This document shows positions 9,005-50,126 of a stretch of DNA of 64,000 nucleotides, piece by piece. Within the stretch, counting starts at the first letter, position 1, and the number at the start of each line of letters is the position of its first letter. A model generated the notes under the pieces. It made no database searches and had not been told where the DNA came from. It saw only the letters and a program-made list of their open reading frames with translations. A program made the position numbers and the translations under genes. The stretch comes from an uncultured Gammaproteobacteria bacterium (GTDB taxonomy: Bacteria > Cyanobacteriota > Vampirovibrionia > LMEP-6097): the NCBI GenBank assembly GCA_964512985.1, contig CAZELI010000002.1:11252-75251 (forward strand). Reading direction: 5' to 3'.

Positions 9005-9958
9005 GTGAGTCTTTGAATGATGTCATTAATACAAGAAATTTTTAATTTTATTTTTGCGCAACCAGGCATAGTTCAAATACTTCTCTTTACTCAAGTATTG
9101 ATTTTGATTATATTCTTACCAAGAATTCTTGTTCTATTAGTTCAATTATTTATAAAGAAAAAGAAGGTTAAAACTATAGAGTTATCGATGACCAGAGATC
9201 AGTTTATAACTTCTTTGAAAAATAAATTGTTTGAAACTAATATAAATTTTGAAAAGATTAATGCAACTAAATTTACTCTCTATGACATTTTTTCTACATT
9301 ATTTATTTTGCCAATTTTGCCATTGAAGTTATTTCTACTAATCAAGAATTTATTTTATAAGTCCAAGAGTAGTACTGAAATTGATATTGAAAAATATCTT
9401 AGAGATTTAAGTATGAAAGGATCATTTCATCTGATCTTTTTAGATAATCCAAATAGAGAGTTTGATTTTGAAAGCTATTTTACTAACAGTGATATTACTA
9501 AATATCCTTTAGCGGGAAAAATAGAGGATAACAATATAAGTCTTTATCTCACACAAAAATATCCAAATGAAAATGTTTATTTTCAACAAGATGCAAAAGC
9601 TTTTTTATATGAAATTAGAATTAAGGAGAACAGTGATCGAAATTTAGTTCTTGAATTATATAAGGAAAAATTTTGGTTTATTAGGGATGCTTTTGATATT
9701 TTATATGATAATTATTTGATAGTTATTCCTAAACATTCAACAATTAGTAAGCTAGCTATTCAGCTATTTATACTTCCTTGTTTTTTTTTCTATTGTATTT
9801 TGCAATTCCAAGCCTAAGAATTTTCTCAGTCTTACCATTAGGTTTACTTTTGTTTGATATTTATTCAACCATAAAACAATCTCAGTTAATAATGAAACAA
9901 AGAAAGTTACTAGATGAGACTGTGATCGATTTAATTACAAAATTATCAAAAAATATTT
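9005..9958 (+). mobile_element. 954 bp very AT-rich insertion bounded by the 49 bp direct repeats; no recombinase gene
   Basis: It is flanked by perfect 49 bp repeats. Its composition is visibly more AT-rich than the flanks. It carries only a membrane-protein ORF. Confidence 0.5.
9017..9817 (+). CDS. hypothetical membrane protein inside the insertion; possibly continues to 9960 after a frameshift at a T9 tract
   Basis: 266 aa ORF with hydrophobic segments. A second ORF (9778-9960) overlaps it at a run of nine T (9781-9789) in another frame. Confidence 0.4.
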   Translation: MMSLIQEIFNFIFAQPGIVQILLFTQVLILIIFLPRILVLLVQLFIKKKKVKTIELSMTRDQFITSLKNKLFETNINFEKINATKFTLYDIFSTLFILPILPLKLFLLIKNLFYKSKSSTEIDIEKYLRDLSMKGSFHLIFLDNPNREFDFESYFTNSDITKYPLAGKIEDNNISLYLTQKYPNENVYFQQDAKAFLYEIRIKENSDRNLVLELYKEKFWFIRDAFDILYDNYLIVIPKHSTISKLAIQLFILPCFFFYCILQFQA

Positions 9959-10007
9959 AAAGTATATTCATCCTGATAAGCTTAATGTGGTGATTGTTGG
10001 GCCGTAA
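9959..10007 (+). repeat. right copy of the 49 bp perfect direct repeat
   Basis: Identical to 8956-9004. It ends immediately before the stop codon of the minus-strand gene at 10008. Confidence 0.9.
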
Positions 10008-11762
10008 TTAAGGTGCTAAGTGGCTACCTTTACTAAGTACTATCAGGCTTTTGTCGTCATTAAACTCTCGAGAGTATTGTAAATATGCTTGAATAATTTT
10101 TTGAGGATTAGTACCAGCGCTTAATACTGGTGTGATAACTGAATTTAGTTGATCAAATCGAGGGGGTATAACTTCTTCACGTTTTAGCTTATCGCCTGAT
10201 TTACTTTTTAATATACCATCTGAAGCAAGAACCAAACCTTCAATATTCTTTTTATCAATAAAACAAACAGTAAATTTTGCGGGATTTTGTTTATGCCAAC
10301 CTTGACCTCGATTCACTACCCCTAAATATGATTTTACTGTACCTTCTCCTGGTATACGATCTGCCGAATTCAAAGAATTTTCAATAATCCCATTAGCATT
10401 AAAAGCAGAAGCAATAGTATCTCCAGCTGAAATTAACATCAATCTTTCACCAAGATCAATAGCCAGGGAAACTGTAGTATTTGCTTCTATAAATTCTTCT
10501 TCTTTATTTTGTGATTTTGTTTGAGTTATTCCAACTGTTTCAATTCTAGTGTTTCTTTCAAGTGGCTCAGCTTTAATCGTTGTAGGTGATTTAATAACTG
10601 TCTCTGGGATTATTTCTTCGCATCTAGATTTAATTTGATCAACTGAATCATTTAAAACTTTCATCGCATTTAGAATCGGCTTATAATCATCAATCAAAAA
10701 CGTTTTCGCAAGCTCATCTAAACTCTTATTCTGATAGAATTTCAAAGATTCATTCTCTAGTTTTTTCAAATCAATAGGTGTATAACCAGCTCTTGTTAAT
10801 GTAGTTCCTTCACCCAATTGACTATAGTCAAACTCATTCCTTCTCTGATTATGAATGTCCCTATTTTTAATAACTAATTTCATCGAACAATCACTGAATT
10901 CATCTTTTGCTAAGTTCAACCCAAGATGCTCTAAATATAAATCCTGTAATTTTTTCTTAGCGTCAATACCTGGTTTTAAGAACTGTCGTAAATTACTAGC
11001 TAATAATGTTTGATAACTATTAGCATCAAATAAATTAGAAAATAATTCTTCAACAGTGGAAATATTCAAGCCTGGTTTAGTTTTTTTTACAAATTTAGAA
11101 CCAAGCTTTTCAAAATCAGCAAACTCTAATTCATGATTTTTAACATGATCAATTACCGCATCTGCTGCGATTTTGCCAGTAGATAATTCTCTATCTAAGC
11201 CAGCTCCACTAATGCCATCTGCAACAGCTGCTAATAATACTGGAGCTTTATTAACATTAGCAGGATTTCTCTGATCTAAACCTACACAATAAGTCGCATC
11301 AGAATTATCACTAAACATTCTACGCTTACCAGCTAAACTTTCTCTCCCCACTGTGAAAGGCTGGTCTTCATTAGCTCCTAAATTGATATTTTTTGCGTTA
11401 ATTAAAATTGGATCAGCAATAGTCCTTAGTAAACGATTTGTATCTCTCAAGGCAGTGACAAAATTAATTTTAAATTTGTCATAAATACTTTTAACTCGTT
11501 CATTTTCATTTTGAACAGAATCGGTAGCTAAATTAAAAATTCCAGCTAAGCTCTCTATAAAGTTAGCAACAGATTGATTAATAATTTTGCTAATTTCAGA
11601 AAAGAACCAGGATGCATAGTCATAACTTAATCCAGAACTAGGAATATCTTTTATTTGAATTTCCTGAACAGCAGCTTTTAATTCAGGCTCAGAAAAATTT
11701 GCATTAATTAAAACCTCTTGCCATCTCGGTATTTGATTGCCAGGAATAGTAGACATGGGCAA
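10008..11762 (-). CDS. PP2C-family phosphatase-like protein with an N-terminal extension and a large internal insert
   Basis: PP2C-like motif series: AAVADGISGAG, ISAGDTIASAF, LVLASDGILKS and a C-terminal DDKSLIVLS. About 230 aa lie between the first two motifs. Confidence 0.55.
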   Translation of the reverse strand: MPMSTIPGNQIPRWQEVLINANFSEPELKAAVQEIQIKDIPSSGLSYDYASWFFSEISKIINQSVANFIESLAGIFNLATDSVQNENERVKSIYDKFKINFVTALRDTNRLLRTIADPILINAKNINLGANEDQPFTVGRESLAGKRRMFSDNSDATYCVGLDQRNPANVNKAPVLLAAVADGISGAGLDRELSTGKIAADAVIDHVKNHELEFADFEKLGSKFVKKTKPGLNISTVEELFSNLFDANSYQTLLASNLRQFLKPGIDAKKKLQDLYLEHLGLNLAKDEFSDCSMKLVIKNRDIHNQRRNEFDYSQLGEGTTLTRAGYTPIDLKKLENESLKFYQNKSLDELAKTFLIDDYKPILNAMKVLNDSVDQIKSRCEEIIPETVIKSPTTIKAEPLERNTRIETVGITQTKSQNKEEEFIEANTTVSLAIDLGERLMLISAGDTIASAFNANGIIENSLNSADRIPGEGTVKSYLGVVNRGQGWHKQNPAKFTVCFIDKKNIEGLVLASDGILKSKSGDKLKREEVIPPRFDQLNSVITPVLSAGTNPQKIIQAYLQYSREFNDDKSLIVLSKGSHLAP

Positions 11763-11854
11763 AATAATACCATGATTTTAATAGTTGCCTAGGAGTGGAA
11801 ATACCTACTAAATCAAGGTTTTATAATAATTGAGTTTTTGAAAGAAGCTAACTA

Positions 11855-12446: not shown

Positions 12447-13949
12447 CTAGATAATAAGGGTTGAAGCTAGCTGAATTACTTTTATCAAGGCCCCAGCTTT
12501 ATTATAGGTTTCTTGGAGTTCTTTTATTGGCTCAGAATCAGCGACTATACCAGCTCCAGCTTGCACTTCCACAGAATCTGGAGTGATTAATAAAGTACGA
12601 ATCATAATGGCACTATCCACCATTCCGTCTAGTCCAAAATATCCAATTGTGCCACCATAAGGACCTCTAGCTTCTTTCTCTAGAGAAGTGATAATTTTTA
12701 TTGCTTCTATTTTAGGAGCGCCACTAAGAGTACCAGCTGGGAAGCAAGCTTGTAGTAATTTTAGTCCTGCTTTAAGTCCTAGGGATTTTTTGATCTTGCC
12801 TAATACAGAGCTAACTATATGCAGTACGTGAGAATACTTCTCTACTATCATGCTCTGGGCGACTTGAATTGAGCCGTTCTCGCAAACTCTTCCTAGGTCG
12901 TTTCTAGCTAAATCCATGAGCATAACATGCTCGGCTATCTCCTTGGGATCGTTTAATAATTTATCAGTTAGGGCATTATCCTCTAGTTCATTAGCACCAC
13001 GTTTATAAGTACCTGCTATAGGACGTATCTCTGCTTCTAAAAACTCTTGACCTAATGAGTCCTGTTTATGAGTTGCTTTAACTAACATTTCTGGCGATGA
13101 GCCTACTAAACTCAATCTCTGATTGTTTTTCAGCTTGATATTATAAATGAATTGATATGGTGAAGGATTAACAGTTCTTAGAATTCTATAGACTTTCAGT
13201 GGATCAACTTTAACCTTTCTTGATAATTTATGTGAGAGTACTACTTGGAATATATCTCCTTCCTTAATGTGTTGCTTGGCTTGGATTACCATCTGCTGAA
13301 ACTCATTAGATCCAGTATTAGACTGAAACTCATTAACATCAACTTGAATGTTTTCATTAATAGCGAGTCGCTTTAGATTAGTTTTCTGATCAATTAATTC
13401 TTTAATTTGATTGATTGCTTTAATAGAATCATTATAAGTATTCTCTAGGTATAGATTATCGTTAATTTTAGATTTATCTATAAGAGAATTAACTACTATA
13501 TAGAACTTATTACTCACATTGTCAAAGACAATCAATGAACCAGCTAGAGCCATATACATCTGCGGATAGATAGATGTTTTCATTTTTAAACTTGGTTCTA
13601 TGTTTTGTATAGATTCAAAGGAGAAATAACCTACATAACCTTGGTGAAAGAAAGGTAATTGTGTGCTTGCTAAATTTAAGGTTTCAAGCTTAGTTTCAAG
13701 TAGTTTATAAGGATTACCCTCATAAGCTTCTATGATTTCTAAAGCTTTATATCCTACAAAGCTATAGCGTCCAATCTTCTCTCCACCAATAACCGATTCA
13801 AATAAAAATGTACCTGAACCACTAGCTTCTAATTTAGAGTATATGGATACAGGAGTGTCTAAGTCAGCAAGTACTTCAATCCAATTAGTGACTAGGCTCT
13901 GTTTGCTAGCTAATGCTTTAAATTTTTCTAAGTCTATGCCAAAGGACAT
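12447..13949 (-). CDS. trpE: anthranilate synthase component I
   Basis: 500 aa with a chorismate-binding C-terminal domain (GTLSGAPKIEAIKII, RGPYGGTIGYF, GAGIVADS). Confidence 0.9.
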   Translation of the reverse strand: MSFGIDLEKFKALASKQSLVTNWIEVLADLDTPVSIYSKLEASGSGTFLFESVIGGEKIGRYSFVGYKALEIIEAYEGNPYKLLETKLETLNLASTQLPFFHQGYVGYFSFESIQNIEPSLKMKTSIYPQMYMALAGSLIVFDNVSNKFYIVVNSLIDKSKINDNLYLENTYNDSIKAINQIKELIDQKTNLKRLAINENIQVDVNEFQSNTGSNEFQQMVIQAKQHIKEGDIFQVVLSHKLSRKVKVDPLKVYRILRTVNPSPYQFIYNIKLKNNQRLSLVGSSPEMLVKATHKQDSLGQEFLEAEIRPIAGTYKRGANELEDNALTDKLLNDPKEIAEHVMLMDLARNDLGRVCENGSIQVAQSMIVEKYSHVLHIVSSVLGKIKKSLGLKAGLKLLQACFPAGTLSGAPKIEAIKIITSLEKEARGPYGGTIGYFGLDGMVDSAIMIRTLLITPDSVEVQAGAGIVADSEPIKELQETYNKAGALIKVIQLASTLII

Positions 13950-13995
13950 GGTGGCTTTATTATAGCTTGTTGATTAAGAGTTTAGAGAATTATTC

Positions 13996-14020
13996 ATTAG
14001 GCAACTTTTTTCTTGGTATG
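13996..14020. repeat. left copy of a 25 bp imperfect direct repeat (24/25)
   Basis: attaggcaacttttttcttggtatg matches attaggtaacttttttcttggtatg at 16158-16182. This copy covers the 3' end of the antitoxin gene. Confidence 0.7.
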
Positions 14021-14308
14021 AAGAAGTTTACTAATAAGCTTGGGTGCCCTCTGAATACAAATTAGATATGAAGCAACACTGTGATCTGGAGAATTCACTC
14101 CCTGTTCCCATTTCCTGAGTGTCTCTAATGAGAAGCCAAAAGTTGTAGAAAAAGCCTGCTGAGTCATCTTAAGTGATCTACGGATTTTTTTTACATCAAT
14201 ACCTTTTCTTACGGTTCTTACAGAGCTTGGGTTGGCAAGAGCTTCTTCAATAGACTCTATTAGTTCTTCACCTAAGGATTTTTCTTGTTTTATCTTTTTG
14301 GTTGACAT
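13997..14308 (-). CDS. XRE/NadS-type helix-turn-helix antitoxin
   Basis: 103 aa with the HTH segment IRRSLKMTQQAFSTTFGFSLETLRKWEQG. It lies 2 nt downstream of the toxin ORF. Confidence 0.75.
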   Translation of the reverse strand: MSTKKIKQEKSLGEELIESIEEALANPSSVRTVRKGIDVKKIRRSLKMTQQAFSTTFGFSLETLRKWEQGVNSPDHSVASYLICIQRAPKLISKLLHTKKKVA

Positions 14309-14310
14309 AA

Positions 14311-14646
14311 TTATTCTTTAAATTGTTTAATTAATTTAGGGATTAGTTTCTTGAGTTGATTTCTTTCCGCATCAGATATATTTTCTTTTTTAGTTTTCTC
14401 GTATGTCCCTATCATTATAATTAAAAGTCCTTTTGAGTAATGATATAGTATCCTTAATCCCCCACTTTTACCTCTATGACTATGTTGAGATTGCCATCGA
14501 AGTTTCCTAACACCACCAGTTCCGCTTATAATTTTTCCTGCGTCAGGATATTGCATTAGGTAGTCATATAGATTCTCTAAATCTCCAAGACTAAGTACAT
14601 CACTTGAATCCTTTATGAATTTAGCTGTGGTTTTAATAGTAATCAT
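14311..14646 (-). CDS. RelE/HigB-2-like type II toxin
   Basis: 111 aa. GGVRKLRW...GKSGGLRILYHY is the motif typical of HigB-2/DUF1044-type toxins. Toxin-first order as in hig systems. Confidence 0.7.
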   Translation of the reverse strand: MITIKTTAKFIKDSSDVLSLGDLENLYDYLMQYPDAGKIISGTGGVRKLRWQSQHSHRGKSGGLRILYHYSKGLLIIMIGTYEKTKKENISDAERNQLKKLIPKLIKQFKE

Positions 14647-14655
14647 ACTTTTCAG

Positions 14656-14688
14656 ATGGTATGATATACTACTAGTATGTTATACCAT
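14656..14688. promoter_or_regulatory. 33 bp near-perfect palindrome upstream of the toxin gene (putative operator), overlapping an extended -10-like TGGTATAAC on the minus strand
   Basis: atggtatgatatactactagtatgttataccat has 14 of 16 arm positions complementary around centre 14672. It lies 10 nt upstream of the toxin ATG. Confidence 0.45.
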
Positions 14689-14829
14689 ATTTTTTCAATT
14701 TAAAACAATTTAGGTTATAAAATAAGTTAATATTTTGCCATTGGTACCAGATTTTAACAGAGCTTTCTCTTAAAAATAAAAATTTGCGGGATTTACGTTA
14801 AACTATGAAAGCCTTATTGGGTGATTATT

Positions 14830-15354
14830 TTAAAATATTGCGGACGCTTGTGACGTCTGAGCGCACATAGGAATCTTTTTTATTAATCTAAAAGCAAAAA
14901 TACATAAGCTAATTCCTAAAGCAAAATTTAGAATTATATCAATTAAAAATCCTGGAATAGCTCCAAATAAAGGGTTTGTGTTTGATATAGGATATAGTGG
15001 ACTCATATCTTTATCATATAAACAACTAACAAAAAAGACACCGAGAGTACCTAATGTACTACCAAATAAAATAGAGGACCAAGAACTGGTGAACTTTAAT
15101 ATACTAGCAATTAACTTAGTAATGAGAATAGTGAGAATTAAATATATCAAGGCACCTGGAAGTTTACTAAATAAGCTTGGTGGTTCACCAACTTCGTATG
15201 CTCCAATTAAATAAATTATTTCTGCACAGATCATTATTAGAGCAACACAGTAAGAGGTAAATGAAAAATGTTTTGTAAATATTGCTTTGAAGAATAATGC
15301 TGGAGCAAAGCAAATCAATAAACCATAAATTAAAAGGAATAAAACTTTTATCAT
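14830..15354 (-). CDS. hypothetical polytopic membrane protein (candidate immunity partner)
   Basis: 174 aa with about 5 hydrophobic helices. Its start overlaps the stop of the upstream ORF by 4 nt (translational coupling). Confidence 0.45.
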   Translation of the reverse strand: MIKVLFLLIYGLLICFAPALFFKAIFTKHFSFTSYCVALIMICAEIIYLIGAYEVGEPPSLFSKLPGALIYLILTILITKLIASILKFTSSWSSILFGSTLGTLGVFFVSCLYDKDMSPLYPISNTNPLFGAIPGFLIDIILNFALGISLCIFAFRLIKKIPMCAQTSQASAIF

Positions 15355-16007
15355 CCTAAATTATTCTCCCCTATTCCATCTAATTTAGACATTGGTGTTT
15401 CAATATCATTAATAAGTGCAACTGTATAACCAGGATATTCACCTGAGTTGATTTTATTAACAAACTCTTCCCTGTACATTGTAAAATTTGTACTCAAATC
15501 TAAAAATCTTATATTTCTACCTGTTTCACTTTCTTCAATAACTCTGACAGGTTTAACTAAATAACCTTGATAAGCTCTGGAATCTTCATCTTGATTAGTT
15601 GTAGTAATTAAACCATTATTTTCTATTTCTTTTTTCAAGGCATCTGCTAAATCTTTTTTTGAACTTGTAGAGCTGCCATATGAGCGTCCAACTTCGTTGT
15701 TCCAGAGATCCATATTTTTTTGTTCTGGTGGTTGCTTTCGAATTAAATCCCCCATCAGTTCATTGAATTGCCCTAAAAGATTAGCAGTGAGTTCATGATA
15801 TTTTTGAGTATAAACTCCACTTACATAGGCGTGACGAAAAGCATCAACATCATTATTAGAAAATGCTCCGCTATCAATATCCCAATCACCATCTGAAGTT
15901 TTAGGTAATGCTCTGATATTGTCATTAAAATATTGGTAAGCCTCATTTTGAGCTTCTTTCTTAGCATTCCATAGTTTAGCTATTTCTTCAAAAAGTGAGT
16001 TCAACAT
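15351..16007 (-). CDS. hypothetical soluble protein with a DxFRHAYxSG...NE...MDLWNNxxGR motif block (candidate toxin/enzyme)
   Basis: 218 aa ORF with conserved-looking His/Glu/Asp motifs. The C-terminal segment ends in a ...PMSKLDGIGENNLG pattern. No confident family assignment. Confidence 0.5.
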   Translation of the reverse strand: MLNSLFEEIAKLWNAKKEAQNEAYQYFNDNIRALPKTSDGDWDIDSGAFSNNDVDAFRHAYVSGVYTQKYHELTANLLGQFNELMGDLIRKQPPEQKNMDLWNNEVGRSYGSSTSSKKDLADALKKEIENNGLITTTNQDEDSRAYQGYLVKPVRVIEESETGRNIRFLDLSTNFTMYREEFVNKINSGEYPGYTVALINDIETPMSKLDGIGENNLG

Positions 16008-16157
16008 GGTAACTCCATTGTAACATTAGCCATTTTATTCTTCTACTGACTTTCGAGTTTGAAAGCCTTTGTATATAAGGTTTTCAGGAAAATATTAATA
16101 GTAATATTGTAGTTAAATTTCTTTAATAATATGGGTTGATTTATATAGGTGGTTTTA

Positions 16158-16182
16158 ATTAGGTAACTTTTTTCTTGGTATG
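16158..16182. repeat. right copy of the 25 bp imperfect direct repeat
   Basis: attaggtaacttttttcttggtatg lies in non-coding DNA between the island and secA. Confidence 0.7.
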
Positions 16183-16241
16183 TAACCGATCACCAAAGTA
16201 ATTATTTTGAAAAGGTAACAGGAGCGTGTGAAGTCAGAACG

Positions 16242-19115
16242 TTACCTAACCCCTTTGGTTTCTACTTTAGCTCCTACAAGTTTAGCTTTCTCACTTACTA
16301 TCTGAGCATGGTAGAGCAGTGATACAGTGTTCTTTCTGATTTCCACTAGTAAATTATCAAACATATCAAAACTTTCACGCTTATATTCTATAAGCGGGTC
16401 TTTTTGTCCGTAACCTTGTAAGTGAATACCTTCCTTAAGTGAGTCCATAGAATGAATATGGCTGATCCACTTAGAATCTATAACATGAAGCATGATTTGT
16501 CTTTCTGCTTCGCGTAGTATCTCAGCTCCTAACGTTGCTTCCTTGTTAGTATAAATTCGTTGCGCTGAAGTTTTCACTTGGTGCATTAATGCTTCAAAAT
16601 TAGCATCGTCAGCTGTTTCGCCGATATCAATACCAGTCATTATATCTTCGGTAAAATCAGCCTTGAGTGATTCAAACAGCTTGGTAATAGCGCTTGGACC
16701 TTGGCTATCATCGTACCAAAGTTCCTTGGGGGTATTAGGAGTGATCTGAGCTAAAACCAAAGTCTCTATATGCTCATCTATCATGTCAAGTATATGAGCA
16801 TGTATATCCTGCCCCTCAAGGATTTCTCTCCGCTCTCTATAAATTACTTCTCTTTGGGTATTAATGACATCGTCGTATTGTAAGACATGCTTACGTATAT
16901 CAAAGTTATGAGCTTCAACTTTCTTCTGAGAGTTATTGATAGCACCAGTGATGATACTTGCTTCTATTGGTAGATCTTCATCAGCCTTAAGCATATTCAT
17001 TACCGATACTACTTTCTCACCACCAAAGATTCTCATCAAGCTATCTTCAAGCGATAGATAAAACTTAGACGCTCCAGGATCACCTTGACGACCGCATCTA
17101 CCTCTAAGCTGATTGTCTATTCTTCTACTTTCGTGCCTCTCACTACCTATTACATAGAGACCACCTTCTTCGATAATTTTCTTTTGCGCTTCAAGATTAA
17201 CAGTGTTGTAATCGGGACTCTCTGGGTCACTAGAAAGATGTCCGCCGAGTATGATGTCGGTACCACGACCTGCCATGTTCGTAGCGATAGTGACAGCACC
17301 AAGCTTTCCTGCTTCTCTAATAATCTGCGCTTCTTTCTTGTGATGCTTAGCGTTAAGGACGTTAGCATTGATACCCTTGCGAATAGCTGCTAAGACCATT
17401 ACCACTTTCTCGAAGCTCTCTATGGCGAACTTCAAGTCTTCACTTGGCTTAGCAATGCTTACTGAAATGAAGTCTATGATTGGTTTAATGTTCTCAGGGC
17501 TTAGGTTGCCAGGTTTATCCAGAACTTTAAGAGCAGCAGCATCTAACTCTATCTTATTAGATTTGAGTTGACGTTGGAGCCGATCTATTCTAAATTGCAG
17601 AACATTTAATGCAGTATTAGGTTTAGTAAGAATATTAGCTAAATATTCTGATTTCTCGATACTAGTAGTACCTACTAAGGTAGGGGTTCCCTGATTATGA
17701 GCCTCTACTATATCTTCCGCTATCGCAAAAAACTTAGCTGCTTCTGTTTTATAAACTACATCATTGAGATCTATTCTGATACAAGGTTTATTAGTTGGAA
17801 TAGTAAGAACTCCAAGGTTATAAATTTTCTCAAACTCTTCAGCTTCAGTAGTTGCTGTACCAGTCATACCGCCAAGTTTAGGATATAGCCTAAATAAGTT
17901 TTGGAAAGTGATACTTGCCATAGTAAGGGTTTCGTCTTGAATTGGCACGCCTTCTTTCGCTTCTACAGCTTGATGTAAGCCATCTGACCATCGACGACCT
18001 TCCATTAAACGTCCAGTGAATTCATCAACTATGACGATTTCTTTTTTGCCATTTTTTTCGCTTTTCTTCACGATATAGTCAGTGTCTGCGATAAATAATT
18101 CTTTAGCACGCAAGGCTTGAATCAAATGATGGGCTAGGTTTAATTCTGGATCCCATAGATCAGTAACTTTTAATATAGATTCAGCTTGTTTAATACCAGC
18201 ATCTGTAAGAATCACATTGCGAGCCTTCTCATCGACATAGTAATGTGAGTCAGCTGAAGTATCTTTCTCTCCAGTGCCACGTTTCATTTGTTTCACGGTT
18301 TTGCTCATGGCTTGATAAACCTCACCCTTGCGAGCATCTGGCATACCACTAATGATTAATGGAGTACGAGCTTCATCTATAAGAATACTGTCTACCTCGT
18401 CTATGATTGCCATGTAGTATGGCTTTTGGACGCAATCATTGATCTCTGTTTCCATATTGTCACGGAGATAATCAAACCCAAACTCATTATTAGTACCGTA
18501 AGTGATGTCACTGGCATAAGCTTCCTGACGAGCTTTAGAGTTCTTGCCAGAAATAATTAAACCAACACTTAAACCAAGAAATTTATATAGTCTACCCATC
18601 CACTCAGAGTCCCGTTGAGCTAAGTAATCATTGACGGTAATTACATGTACACCTCGTGCTGCTAAGGCATTCAGGTAAGCAGGTAAAGTACAAACCAAAG
18701 TCTTACCCTCGCCAGTTTGCATCTCAGATATGCCACCACGATGTAACTGTATTCCACCAATTAACTGCACATCAAAATGACGCATTTTAAGTACACGTCT
18801 AGCAGCTTCTCTACAAACTGCAAACGCTTCTGGTAATATTTCTTCCAAGATTTCTTTTAGGGCTTTATCATGGCTGGTTCTAACTTGACCAGGCATTTTA
18901 GGGACATCATCCTTGATAAGTTTTTCGAATGGAGTTTCGCTGATTCTAACTTGAATTTTTGATTGAAATTCACGAGTTTTGGCTTTAAGTTCTTCGTCGT
19001 TTAGAGTTTGTATTTGTGGTTCTAAAGAATTGATCTGTTCAACAATGGGCTTTATCTTGTCTAGGATCTTTTTATTTGGGTCACCTGTGAAAATTTGTAG
19101 TACTTGGTCGAGCAT
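16242..19115 (-). CDS. secA: preprotein translocase ATPase SecA
   Basis: 957 aa with DEAD-like motor motifs (MQTGEGKTLV, IDEVDSILIDEARTPLIIS, TNMAGRGTDI). Confidence 0.95.
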   Translation of the reverse strand: MLDQVLQIFTGDPNKKILDKIKPIVEQINSLEPQIQTLNDEELKAKTREFQSKIQVRISETPFEKLIKDDVPKMPGQVRTSHDKALKEILEEILPEAFAVCREAARRVLKMRHFDVQLIGGIQLHRGGISEMQTGEGKTLVCTLPAYLNALAARGVHVITVNDYLAQRDSEWMGRLYKFLGLSVGLIISGKNSKARQEAYASDITYGTNNEFGFDYLRDNMETEINDCVQKPYYMAIIDEVDSILIDEARTPLIISGMPDARKGEVYQAMSKTVKQMKRGTGEKDTSADSHYYVDEKARNVILTDAGIKQAESILKVTDLWDPELNLAHHLIQALRAKELFIADTDYIVKKSEKNGKKEIVIVDEFTGRLMEGRRWSDGLHQAVEAKEGVPIQDETLTMASITFQNLFRLYPKLGGMTGTATTEAEEFEKIYNLGVLTIPTNKPCIRIDLNDVVYKTEAAKFFAIAEDIVEAHNQGTPTLVGTTSIEKSEYLANILTKPNTALNVLQFRIDRLQRQLKSNKIELDAAALKVLDKPGNLSPENIKPIIDFISVSIAKPSEDLKFAIESFEKVVMVLAAIRKGINANVLNAKHHKKEAQIIREAGKLGAVTIATNMAGRGTDIILGGHLSSDPESPDYNTVNLEAQKKIIEEGGLYVIGSERHESRRIDNQLRGRCGRQGDPGASKFYLSLEDSLMRIFGGEKVVSVMNMLKADEDLPIEASIITGAINNSQKKVEAHNFDIRKHVLQYDDVINTQREVIYRERREILEGQDIHAHILDMIDEHIETLVLAQITPNTPKELWYDDSQGPSAITKLFESLKADFTEDIMTGIDIGETADDANFEALMHQVKTSAQRIYTNKEATLGAEILREAERQIMLHVIDSKWISHIHSMDSLKEGIHLQGYGQKDPLIEYKRESFDMFDNLLVEIRKNTVSLLYHAQIVSEKAKLVGAKVETKGVR

Positions 19116-48777: not shown

Positions 48778-50126
48778 TGATTATCAAGCGAAAAATTCTC
48801 AAGTCTATTTATGGTGAGGATATTCTTCCCTTAGATTTGAAATTAGTTACTAAACTACAACCGAAGCAATTTGATAGTAATTCTTCTCCGCATCAAGCAC
48901 AAGAGCAATCTATAGATGCATTGGCTGAAGATCTAGTACAAGCGAGGGTAGATGAGTTATATGCTCAGAAAGAAGCTGAAGTAGCTGAGATCGAAAAGCA
49001 AGCTCAAGCAGATATTCAGAAGGCACTAGATGATTCTAAGGTTCTTGCGCAGCAGATCTTAGATGATGCGCAGCTTCAAGCTAATAATTTAACTAATCAG
49101 GCTTTAGCCGTGATTGAGAAGCAGAAACAAGAGATTAGTAAGCTAGCTAAAACTGAATCTGAGCGAGGTTTCAAGGAGGGCATGGCAAAAGCCGATATTT
49201 ATATCCGCGACTTGATGAAAATGCTTGCTAGTTTTAATAATGCCAAAAAAGATATTTTATTAGAAGTGAAGAATGAAATTGCTAGCCTTGCAATCCATGT
49301 AGTAAGGCAAATATTCAAAAGAGAAGTACAAATTAATCCTGAACTGCTGGAAGAGCAAATACTTAAAGCAGTAAACCTTGTTTCTGATGGTAAAGGAATC
49401 ATTCAGGTTTATCTTAATCCAATAGATCAGGCTAAGGCAGTTTTTCTAGAACAGAATTTGTCTAAACTTATTGATGAGTCTATAAAGTTAATATTCTTAA
49501 AGGACGAAACTGTCGATGAAGGTTCTTGTATTATCAATACTAAAGGTGGCAGCTTAGATGTAAGTTTTTCAAGCCAAATTGAGCTAATAAAAGTTGCCTT
49601 TGAAATGTATTTAGGGCATAAAATTGAAGAGATCCCTGAACCTAATGAGTTGAGTGGGTCCGATCAAGCAGAGACAGAATCAATGCGAGTAGATCCAGAT
49701 AAAATTATAAAAACTAAATTCGGCCCGATTAAAGAGCCATCAGATGAAGACCTTGAAATGATAGAACTTGAAGCGGATGAGTTTGATGATCTTATTATTG
49801 ATGATGATTTAGATGCCTTACTTAAAGAAGTAATGATGGAAGATGGTGCTGATATTAAAGATGAAGATGTTATAAAAACCGATGATGATATACCCCTTTC
49901 GGAAATTGAAGATGAAAATTATAATAAGAATGATAAAAATGAGGAGGAGATAACATTGAGTTACGATGATGATGACGATAGTTTAGACCTCGATGAGGAT
50001 AAAGACGATTTAGCTGACGATGATGATTTAGATCTTGATATGGATGAGTTTGATGAACTTGCTGATGATCCAGAAGCTGGTGGAGATGATGATTCTGGCA
50101 TGGATGAGCGTTTCCCAGAGTACTAA
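48777..50126 (+). CDS. fliH: FliH-like flagellar export regulator with a long acidic C-terminal extension
   Basis: An N-terminal coiled coil (AQKEAEVAEIEKQAQADIQKALDD) is followed by the FliH/NtpE-like core (ERGFKEGMAKA...IASLAIHVVRQIFKREV) and about 165 aa of D/E-rich tail. GTG start overlapping the previous stop. Confidence 0.65.
   Translation: MIIKRKILKSIYGEDILPLDLKLVTKLQPKQFDSNSSPHQAQEQSIDALAEDLVQARVDELYAQKEAEVAEIEKQAQADIQKALDDSKVLAQQILDDAQLQANNLTNQALAVIEKQKQEISKLAKTESERGFKEGMAKADIYIRDLMKMLASFNNAKKDILLEVKNEIASLAIHVVRQIFKREVQINPELLEEQILKAVNLVSDGKGIIQVYLNPIDQAKAVFLEQNLSKLIDESIKLIFLKDETVDEGSCIINTKGGSLDVSFSSQIELIKVAFEMYLGHKIEEIPEPNELSGSDQAETESMRVDPDKIIKTKFGPIKEPSDEDLEMIELEADEFDDLIIDDDLDALLKEVMMEDGADIKDEDVIKTDDDIPLSEIEDENYNKNDKNEEEITLSYDDDDDSLDLDEDKDDLADDDDLDLDMDEFDELADDPEAGGDDDSGMDERFPEY

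Follow-up and report, generated by a model that had tools for sequence, protein, structure and literature searches.

A 64,000-nt stretch of contig CAZELI010000002.1 (assembly GCA_964512985.1, positions 11,252–75,251; hereafter the window) contains a small gene islet between secA and trpE that is bracketed by a direct repeat. The islet carries a toxin–antitoxin (TA) pair related to HigB-2/HigA-2, a gene for a DUF6973 protein and a gene for a polytopic membrane protein. Comparison with two congeners divides it into two mobile cassettes, one nested in the leader of the other, and the repeat is a copy of the end of the TA cassette, possibly left by a head-to-tail joint. The source assembly is termed G000 and the congeners G001 and G002; C-numbers designate contigs. 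Coordinates are collected in Table 1.

The secA–trpE islet and its genes

A sequence-only reading of the window had described four co-directional genes here, a HigB-2-like toxin, a helix-turn-helix (HTH) antitoxin, a 218-aa protein and an overlapping polytopic membrane protein, and this description holds; all four lie on the minus strand, as do secA and trpE. The long AT-rich non-coding stretches that it mentioned are also present (14647–14829 and 16008–16154). GC content is 28–34% in the islet compared with 37–44% in secA.

The toxin matches PF06296 with 29.3 bits (cut-off 27) and the HigB-2 entries 5ja8/5ja9 of PDB with an E value of 8e-8. The antitoxin matches HTH_3 with 24.9 bits (cut-off 23), and the NadS and MqsA models fall under their cut-offs (Pfam, NCBIfam). 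The toxin gene comes first and is separated from the antitoxin gene by 2 nt. A 33-nt palindrome upstream of the toxin gene is probably the TA operator. By family match, gene order and operator palindrome, the pair fits a predicted type II TA system of the HigB-2/HigA-2 kind. No mobility domains were detected in the four islet genes with Pfam or NCBIfam, and no recombinase is encoded in the islet; the genome at large was not searched for candidate integrases.

Table 1. Features of the secA–trpE islet (window positions) and further repeat-bracketed cassettes of G000 (contig positions)
Feature	Location	Strand	Remarks
trpE, core flank	12447..13949	-	upstream region kept within the genus from about 13971
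DR_L, left repeat copy	13993..14020	-	native antitoxin 3′ end: final 7 codons HTKKKVA, stop and 4 nt beyond
Antitoxin gene, 103 aa	13997..14308	-	HTH_3 / NadS / MqsA-C-like
Toxin gene, 111 aa	14311..14646	-	RelE family PF06296, related to Vibrio cholerae HigB-2
Palindrome, 33 nt	14656..14688	.	immediately upstream of toxin start; kept in G002 copy
Leader 3′ half (AACGTAAATCCCGCAAATTTTT...)	14738..14817	-	nhmmer, G000:C5 leader positions 168–247
Short duplication TGAAAGCCTT (minus strand AAGGCTTTCA)	14806..14815	.	TA side of nested insertion
Polytopic membrane protein, 174 aa	14830..15354	-	overlaps DUF6973 gene
DUF6973 protein, 218 aa	15351..16007	-	stand-alone conserved family
Short duplication TGAAAGCCTT	16060..16069	.	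secA side of nested insertion
Leader 5′ half	16065..16156	-	nhmmer, G000:C5 leader positions 82–174; abuts DR_R
DR_R, right repeat copy	16155..16182	-	no open reading frame attached; first 18 nt (minus strand) are the exact antitoxin 3′ end; final 10 nt ACCTAATTAA
Spacer TGGTGATCGGTTA, 13 nt	16183..16195	-	between post-stop motif and DR_R; no other genome copy
Post-stop stem-loop GGTAAC-N21-GTTACC-TTTTCAAAATAATTACTT	16196..16246	-	overlaps secA stop codon
secA, core flank	16242..19115	-	
HEPN (129 aa) and MNT (122 aa)	G000:C2:138178-139018		45-nt repeat of 3′ end of a 699-aa gene
AbiEii and AbiEi	C26:24115/25963		45-nt repeat
Fic protein	C51:4191/5519		34-nt repeat
MNT and HEPN-like protein	C13:55336/56131		27-nt repeat
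Gp49/HigB-like and HTH	C5:9168/9933		30-nt repeat
YhcG-type nuclease	C1:141326/145312		26-nt repeat
AAA-ATPase_like/PDDEXK_9 gene, 533 aa	G000:C9:26355-28086		55-nt repeat

The direct repeat

The 25-mer ATTAGG(C/T)AACTTTTTTCTTGGTATG is found, as first reported, at exactly 13996–14020, overlapping the 3′ end of the antitoxin gene, and at 16158–16182 in non-coding DNA. With up to three mismatches allowed, no other copy occurs in the window and none in 100 dinucleotide-preserving shuffles. The match widens to 28 nt, of which 26 are identical (13993–14020 and 16155–16182). This is the single such pair in the entire assembly (2.31 Mb, 76 contigs), so the sequence is not a dispersed motif, one of the points that the sequence-only reading had raised. 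The 28-nt repeat is not a chance match.

The left (DR_L) and right (DR_R) copies share 18 identical nucleotides (CATACCAAGAAAAAAGTT), and both mismatches fall in the last 10 nt of DR_R (ACCTAATTAA). DR_R lies 60 nt 3′ of the secA stop and translates as HTKKKVT followed by a stop, in the frame of the antitoxin tail HTKKKVA. Upstream of DR_R that frame reads a stop and LHTLLLPFQNNYFGDRL, which is unrelated to the antitoxin; a conserved post-stop motif sits there. The suggestion that the right copy is the remnant of a second antitoxin gene gains nothing from its flanks, whose translation reveals no further antitoxin sequence, and neither the toxin nor the antitoxin has a second copy in G000 by tblastn.

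Folding of the two 28-mer copies shows no hairpin or dyad (z-scores +0.45 and −1.56), no Rfam family matches 13900–16320, and a promoter and terminator scan gave nothing above chance and nothing at either repeat copy. The 28-mer was considered as a terminator and rejected, as neither copy folds into a hairpin. It was also considered as a Xer/dif (pdif) site, i.e. 28 bp with two 11-bp inverted arms and a 6-bp spacer, and rejected because its two arms, TTCATTAGGCA and TTCTTGGTATG, do not form an inverted repeat.

Two cassettes, one within the other

When the islet DNA was searched against the congeners, the interval fell into three pieces: the TA cassette, the DUF6973 gene and a dispersed non-coding element. 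Window positions 13989–14704 are 79% identical to G002:C2:49181–49894, with weaker homology in the leader up to ~14830. The TA cassette of G002 has a 296-aa gene on one side and, convergent to it, a 458-aa gene on the other; these two neighbours are also found in G000:C7 with 14–18 nt between their stops, which represents the empty site.

No repeat flanks the G002 TA cassette, and no antitoxin-tail repeat is present within ±1.5 kb at ten further loci of this TA family in the bacterial family. Thus, the repeat is not a hallmark of cassette mobility. Relatives that carry the genes without the repeats are what the sequence-only reading had named as evidence against its own proposal.

The G002 antitoxin ends in KLLHINRKIA and a stop, and the tails of homologues from other genera are similar and likewise rich in K. 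Because the tail is homologous in G002 and in other genera, the antitoxin tail in DR_L is evidently native, and DR_R a copy of cargo rather than a pre-existing target. The alignments show the 28-nt repeat to be a copy of the TA cassette's own end. Since the duplicated end belongs to the cargo, it is neither a target duplication nor an att-type identity block.

The dispersed element was found at window positions ~16061–16156, which match non-coding DNA at G000:C5 and at three G002 loci. It is a leader of ~170 nt upstream of a family of ~648-aa secreted proline-rich proteins, contains CCTT..AAGG and ACGTAAATTGCGCAAATTT, and also precedes the TA cassette. Copies lie at G000:C5:15231–15396, G002:C5 ~48800–48960, G002:C9 ~9190–9350 and G002:C19; the G002 TA cassette has the 3′ part only. 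In the islet the leader is in two halves, which, when joined by script, are colinear with the intact leaders and with the G002 TA leader. At the junctions there is a duplication of ~10 nt, AAGGCTTTCA(A/T)A (repeat family D9). Because consecutive parts of the leader map to its two sides, the DUF6973/membrane pair (1254 nt) shows up as a nested unit, inserted into the TA leader with this ~10-nt duplication.

The DUF6973 gene is 68% identical to a gene at a third G002 locus, where a small YdjM/DUF4184-like membrane gene comes next, beside an AbiE pair and pckA. The comparison shows the TA cassette and the DUF6973 pair as separate mobile units. Before the nested insertion, the two 28-mers would have been ~908 nt apart, enclosing the leader, toxin and antitoxin only. 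The earlier picture of a single 2.2-kb cassette acquired in one integration is thus not borne out; instead, one cassette sits within the leader of another, the TA cassette.

A hotspot between secA and trpE

In 13 genomes from 11 other genera, including one from a sister family, the secA and trpE matches share a strand and are separated by 0–84 nt, which agrees with the expectation that the islet is accessory DNA in a conserved junction. In G002 the gap is 7.3 kb and holds four unrelated genes, and in G001 it contains other genes again. Yet another cargo is found at trpE in G000:C73, a 2.3-kb contig of the same bin (2303 nt). Homology between the congeners stops within the last ~15 codons of secA and restarts ~22 nt upstream of the trpE start. 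Because the gap is tight in other genera but the cargo differs from species to species within the genus, the junction is evidently a genus-specific hotspot and the islet accessory DNA. No bracketing repeats were found around the secA–trpE islands of G002, G001 or C73, and no relative carries the 28-mer at secA–trpE.

The trpE start of C73 is identical over 70 aa to that of G001, and is followed by open reading frames (ORFs) of 198, 109 and 263 aa and a leucine-rich repeat protein gene. This trpE version suggests that the bin includes another strain or species. The hotspot island of G002 (L003, 1196–5143) encodes a 1315-aa low-complexity, internally repetitive protein and three ORFs unrelated to the G000 cargo. 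A Ser/Gly-rich ORF of ~240 aa at the hotspot is common to G001 and G002.

Origin of the right-hand repeat

Leader homology begins at 16156 (nhmmer), which is the inner edge of DR_R. In three of the four other leader copies the alignment appears to run ~10 nt into DR_R (ACCTAATTAA compared with CCCCAATAAT, ACTTAAATAT and CTCCAACAAT). There is a microhomology of 10 nt at this point, with 8/10 identical (GCCTAATGAA and ACCTAATTAA). DR_R looks like a joint, since the leader boundary coincides with it and the mismatches are confined to these 10 nt. In G002:C5, the leader comes straight after a post-stop motif of this kind, without the 31-nt insert.

DR_R may accordingly be read as a head-to-tail joint that arose when the antitoxin 3′ end, represented by its last 18 nt, was fused to the 5′ end of the leader via the microhomology. 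Such a joint would be expected from a tandem duplication of the TA unit or from a circular TA unit. The first TA copy would then have been deleted, leaving a scar of 18+10 nt and the 13 nt beside the post-stop motif of secA. The DUF6973/membrane cassette would have entered the TA leader later, although the order of events is itself conjectural. That the locus is a hotspot with nested cassettes and the 28-mer a head-to-tail scar of the TA cassette is a tentative proposal, to which we give slightly less than an even chance.

Several points weigh against it. Two events are needed, duplication or integration of a circle and then deletion, and neither tandem TA copies nor a circle were found in the genomes or contigs. 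The 10-nt alignment of DR_R with the leader is AT-rich, involves three of four leader copies and could be fortuitous. The 13-nt spacer has no explanation, and a leader boundary at the joint would be equally compatible with a self-contained mobile unit whose ends are fixed. One Logan contig (5 samples listed) encodes the exact toxin and antitoxin in the same gene order, and its 2,359 nt are 100% identical to 13158–15516; this contig ends short of DR_R, shows no variant and says nothing on the repeat. Scans for the toxin in genome and metagenome contigs gave only distant relatives (34–57% identity) and no close islet variant, and an exact-protein look-up of the DUF6973 protein returned no record.

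Could the four genes have arrived together? A circular element of 2.16 kb might have integrated in one step, by a site-specific or Campbell-type event at an identical 28-nt site, leaving attL/attR-like repeats. The repeats are direct, sharp-edged and unique in the genome, recombination between them would free a circle with an intact antitoxin gene, and small repeat-flanked cassettes are common in G000. However, the interval is made up of more than one unit: in G002 the TA cassette and the DUF6973 pair occupy different loci, and in the islet the pair is nested with its own duplication. In addition, the chromosomal site needed would itself be an antitoxin remnant, no repeat is present at the G002 TA cassette or at the ten other loci, the islet encodes no recombinase and the 28-mer has no dyad symmetry or stable hairpin. 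One-step integration is thus unlikely, and the 28-nt repeat does not seem to be the integration footprint of the whole islet.

An equally unlikely origin is a templated patch, i.e. a filler of 13 nt plus 18 nt copied from the nearby antitoxin 3′ end, synthesized as end-joining or break repair attached the leader–TA segment downstream of secA, and primed on the CCTAAT.AA microhomology. Just 18 exact nucleotides are clearly antitoxin-derived, with 13 orphan nucleotides before them and microhomology after, and the G002:C5 arrangement of post-stop motif and leader lacks such a 31-nt insert. Yet the copied stretch stops where the cassette does, as would more readily be expected of a head-to-tail junction. 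To our knowledge, there is also little documentation of templated fillers this large in bacteria, which counts against a patch.

Insertion with long target duplication, in which the 28 nt pre-existed at the site and were doubled when the cargo was inserted, is quite improbable here. The phenomenon has been described for restriction-modification systems (PMC2853133), a bona fide case exists in G000 (a 45-nt repeat at a HEPN-MNT cassette that is single-copy in G002), and the 49-nt end of an M16 peptidase gene is likewise single-copy in G002. However, the repeated sequence at the islet is the native tail of the cargo antitoxin, and the homology of the G002 tail largely refutes a target origin. 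It would have to be a coincidence that the repeat completes the antitoxin ORF, the 28-mer is not seen as a target in any relative, and 28 nt is below the 30-bp criterion (PMC2853133).

It is very improbable that the two copies merely resemble each other by chance or function, e.g. because trpE and the leader are both preceded by a promoter or UP-like A-tract, without common descent, for although both are A-rich, lie upstream of a minus-strand gene start and contain TTGCCT/TTACCT, which resemble a −35 box, they agree at 26/28 positions with 18 exact nucleotides (our own estimate of the number expected by chance in the genome is ~0.02, and no shuffle matched), the promoter scan is empty at both, and no other copy lies upstream of any gene.

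The post-stop motif

The motif beside DR_R belongs to a stem-loop of ~50 nt, GGTAAC(R)TTCYGACYTCRCACGCTCCYGTTAC(Y)..TTYAA.ATAA, in which a stem of 6 bp encloses a loop of 21 invariant nucleotides and is followed by a tail (TTTCAA). It is present in at least 11–13 copies in G000, and also in G001 and G002. Besides 16196–16246, the G000 sites are on C1, C5, C10 (three), C12, C13, C15, C19, C31 and C36 (two). Five of 11 copies abut or overlap the stop of a long ORF. The stem-loop has no Rfam match, and its outer stem pair varies between G-C, A-U and G-U.

The DUF6973 gene pair

Homologues of the DUF6973 protein are widespread and make up a stand-alone family of ~215 aa, in which the motifs D-x-D-A-F-R-H, E and M-D-x-W-N-N are invariant. 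A gene for a small membrane protein lies downstream of the DUF6973 gene in each context examined, and TA modules are beside the pair in two. The islet membrane protein is 32% identical to the YdjM/DUF4184-like DUF6973 partner in G002, and has none of the histidines conserved in that partner. The AlphaFold model of the DUF6973 protein is of high confidence, with a pLDDT (predicted local distance difference test) of 89.6, and has no significant match in PDB. A link to the Bacteroides type VI secretion system effector BteO was considered and set aside as a weak lead only (sequence E 0.044; Foldseek probability 0.30).

The DUF6973 gene and that for a YdjM/DUF4184-like membrane protein appear as a conserved two-gene module beside TA/Abi (abortive infection) genes (window 14830–16007; L013, 1479–2627). 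G000 has a second DUF6973 copy with 82% aa identity and a separate homologue of the membrane partner, rearranged around an AbiE pair (C1:124611–125187 and C1:122499–122928).

Duplicated gene ends elsewhere in the genome

G000 was scanned for isolated two-copy direct repeats of 24–100 nt that lie 0.3–10 kb apart. There are 25 such pairs, and in 14 of them a copy includes, or lies directly against, the stop codon of an ORF with 100 aa or more, compared with an expected 2.2 ± 1.4 and a maximum of 8 in 1000 random placements. The cargo among the checked pairs consists mostly of TA/Abi modules.

The HEPN-MNT cassette differs from the secA–trpE islet. Its 45-nt repeat is a single copy at the uninterrupted G002 locus (G002:C4:107177–107220), and the gene-attached copy in G000 is the one closer to G002; G001 has a different insert, of 1.8 kb, at this site. 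On these alignments, the repeat is a true target duplication.

The sequence-only reading had likened the islet to a 49-bp case; the repeat concerned is that of the M16 peptidase gene 3′ end. The likeness does not extend to the origin of the repeat, since at the islet the duplicated 3′ end is that of a cargo gene and not of a flanking target gene. At window 9005–11854 G000 has extra DNA that comprises a 266-aa membrane ORF and a 584-aa PP2C-like gene, with the second 49-nt copy between them; in G002 and G001 the M16 peptidase gene converges directly on a 179-aa gene. An apparent M16 gene-end duplication in G001 (L009 of G001:C30, 2152–2359) was rejected as an artefact of scaffolding: two contig ends that overlap by 55 nt lie on either side of 100 N, exactly at the stop codon. 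The position of this artefact at the stop codon suggests a strain-variable junction there.

The AAA-ATPase_like/PDDEXK_9 gene of C9 is the second case with the same cassette topology as the HigB-2 islet. A diverged 55-nt copy of the gene's own 3′ end lies 27 nt upstream of its start, with three synonymous and three non-synonymous differences. Both copies are within a 2.17-kb insert; at that position G001 has 11 nt and G002 has 264 nt. Pairs on C17 and C52 were also considered as cassette insertions and rejected, since they are what is left of tandem paralogues and differ mostly at synonymous positions.

The duplication of gene ends around small addiction/defence cassettes is a real and statistically strong feature of G000, and the cases are not all of one kind. 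The general idea of the sequence-only reading is supported, as repeats of gene 3′ ends around small cassettes occur in excess. The secA–trpE islet evidently belongs to a minority class, in which the repeat is derived from the cargo.

Significance

The movement of chromosomal TA and small defence cassettes without recognizable mobile elements is poorly understood. Perhaps TA and Abi cassettes move as discrete promoter-to-stop units, with no recombinase of their own, via tandem or circular intermediates, and the traces are target 3′-end duplications of 26–55 nt or, at the islet and at C9, fossil head-to-tail joints. This generalization is speculative and rather unlikely to hold. If true, Kobayashi's insertion with long target duplication would extend from restriction-modification systems to TA modules, and the joint between DR_R and the leader would be the first sequence trace of the intermediate.

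G000 offers a compact natural data set: a hotspot with nested cassettes, an empty and a filled site for the same TA cassette in two congeners, and eight or more other TA/Abi cassettes that lie between duplicated gene ends. Should the joint go back to a circular or tandem intermediate, it provides a concrete junction sequence to look for. If it does not arise from such an intermediate, the locus would be a hotspot islet of the usual sort that bears the scar of a rearrangement.

Comparison with known systems

Of the phenomena described so far, insertion with long target duplication comes closest to the islet. It was reported for restriction-modification systems by Nobusato and colleagues in 2000 (Gene 259:99) and by Furuta, Abe and Kobayashi in 2010 (PMC2853133). 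In these insertions, repeats of >30 bp align to a single copy at the empty site and there are no mobility genes (PMC2853133; reviewed in PMC3874152). The similarities to the islet include a small addiction-type cassette without transposase or integrase and unique direct repeats of tens of base pairs, often over a gene 3′ end, that could support amplification or release. The insert of 2.16 kb is within the size limit of 20 kb and carries a complete addiction module, and other G000 islets, such as the 45-nt HEPN-MNT case, fit the definition. However, the islet repeat is not target-derived and measures 28 nt instead of >30 bp, no empty site carries the 28-mer, and the cargo is a TA and not a restriction-modification system. 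A limited search of open-access text found no reports of long target duplication for TA modules.

Integrase-less remnants flanked by att sites (CIMEs) and islands at gene 3′ ends that supply a replacement 3′ end have direct repeats with the last codons and stop of a gene and no recombinase inside, and mobilization in trans is possible, all of which resembles the islet. They differ in that the repeated gene end of the islet belongs to the element and not to the host target, for which reason an att-type (CIME) interpretation was rejected. In addition, the secA stop is 60 nt from the repeat, trpE is met at its 5′ end, and the islet element is composite with a size of 0.9–2.2 kb.

Core-gene hotspots of defence and TA cargo are also similar, as the secA and trpE flanks are conserved and the cargo differs in each congener and is of TA or conflict type. 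The usual explanation for such hotspots is that the flanks recombine homologously, which leaves no internal repeats. By contrast, the islet has an internal head-to-tail scar, if the joint is read correctly, and a nested insertion with a short duplication.

The HigB-2/HigA-2 cassettes of the V. cholerae superintegron lack neither the toxin homology nor the organization seen here: toxin related to HigB-2, toxin gene first, HTH antitoxin and mobile-cassette behaviour. Unlike them, the islet has no attC-like structured site or repeat array, and its repeat is coding. An integron attC site was rejected for the 28-mer, which shows no dyad or hairpin on folding, has no Rfam match and occurs in only two genome copies. 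With its hotspot location, nested cassettes and cargo-derived repeat, the islet is a variant within known kinds of cassette turnover.

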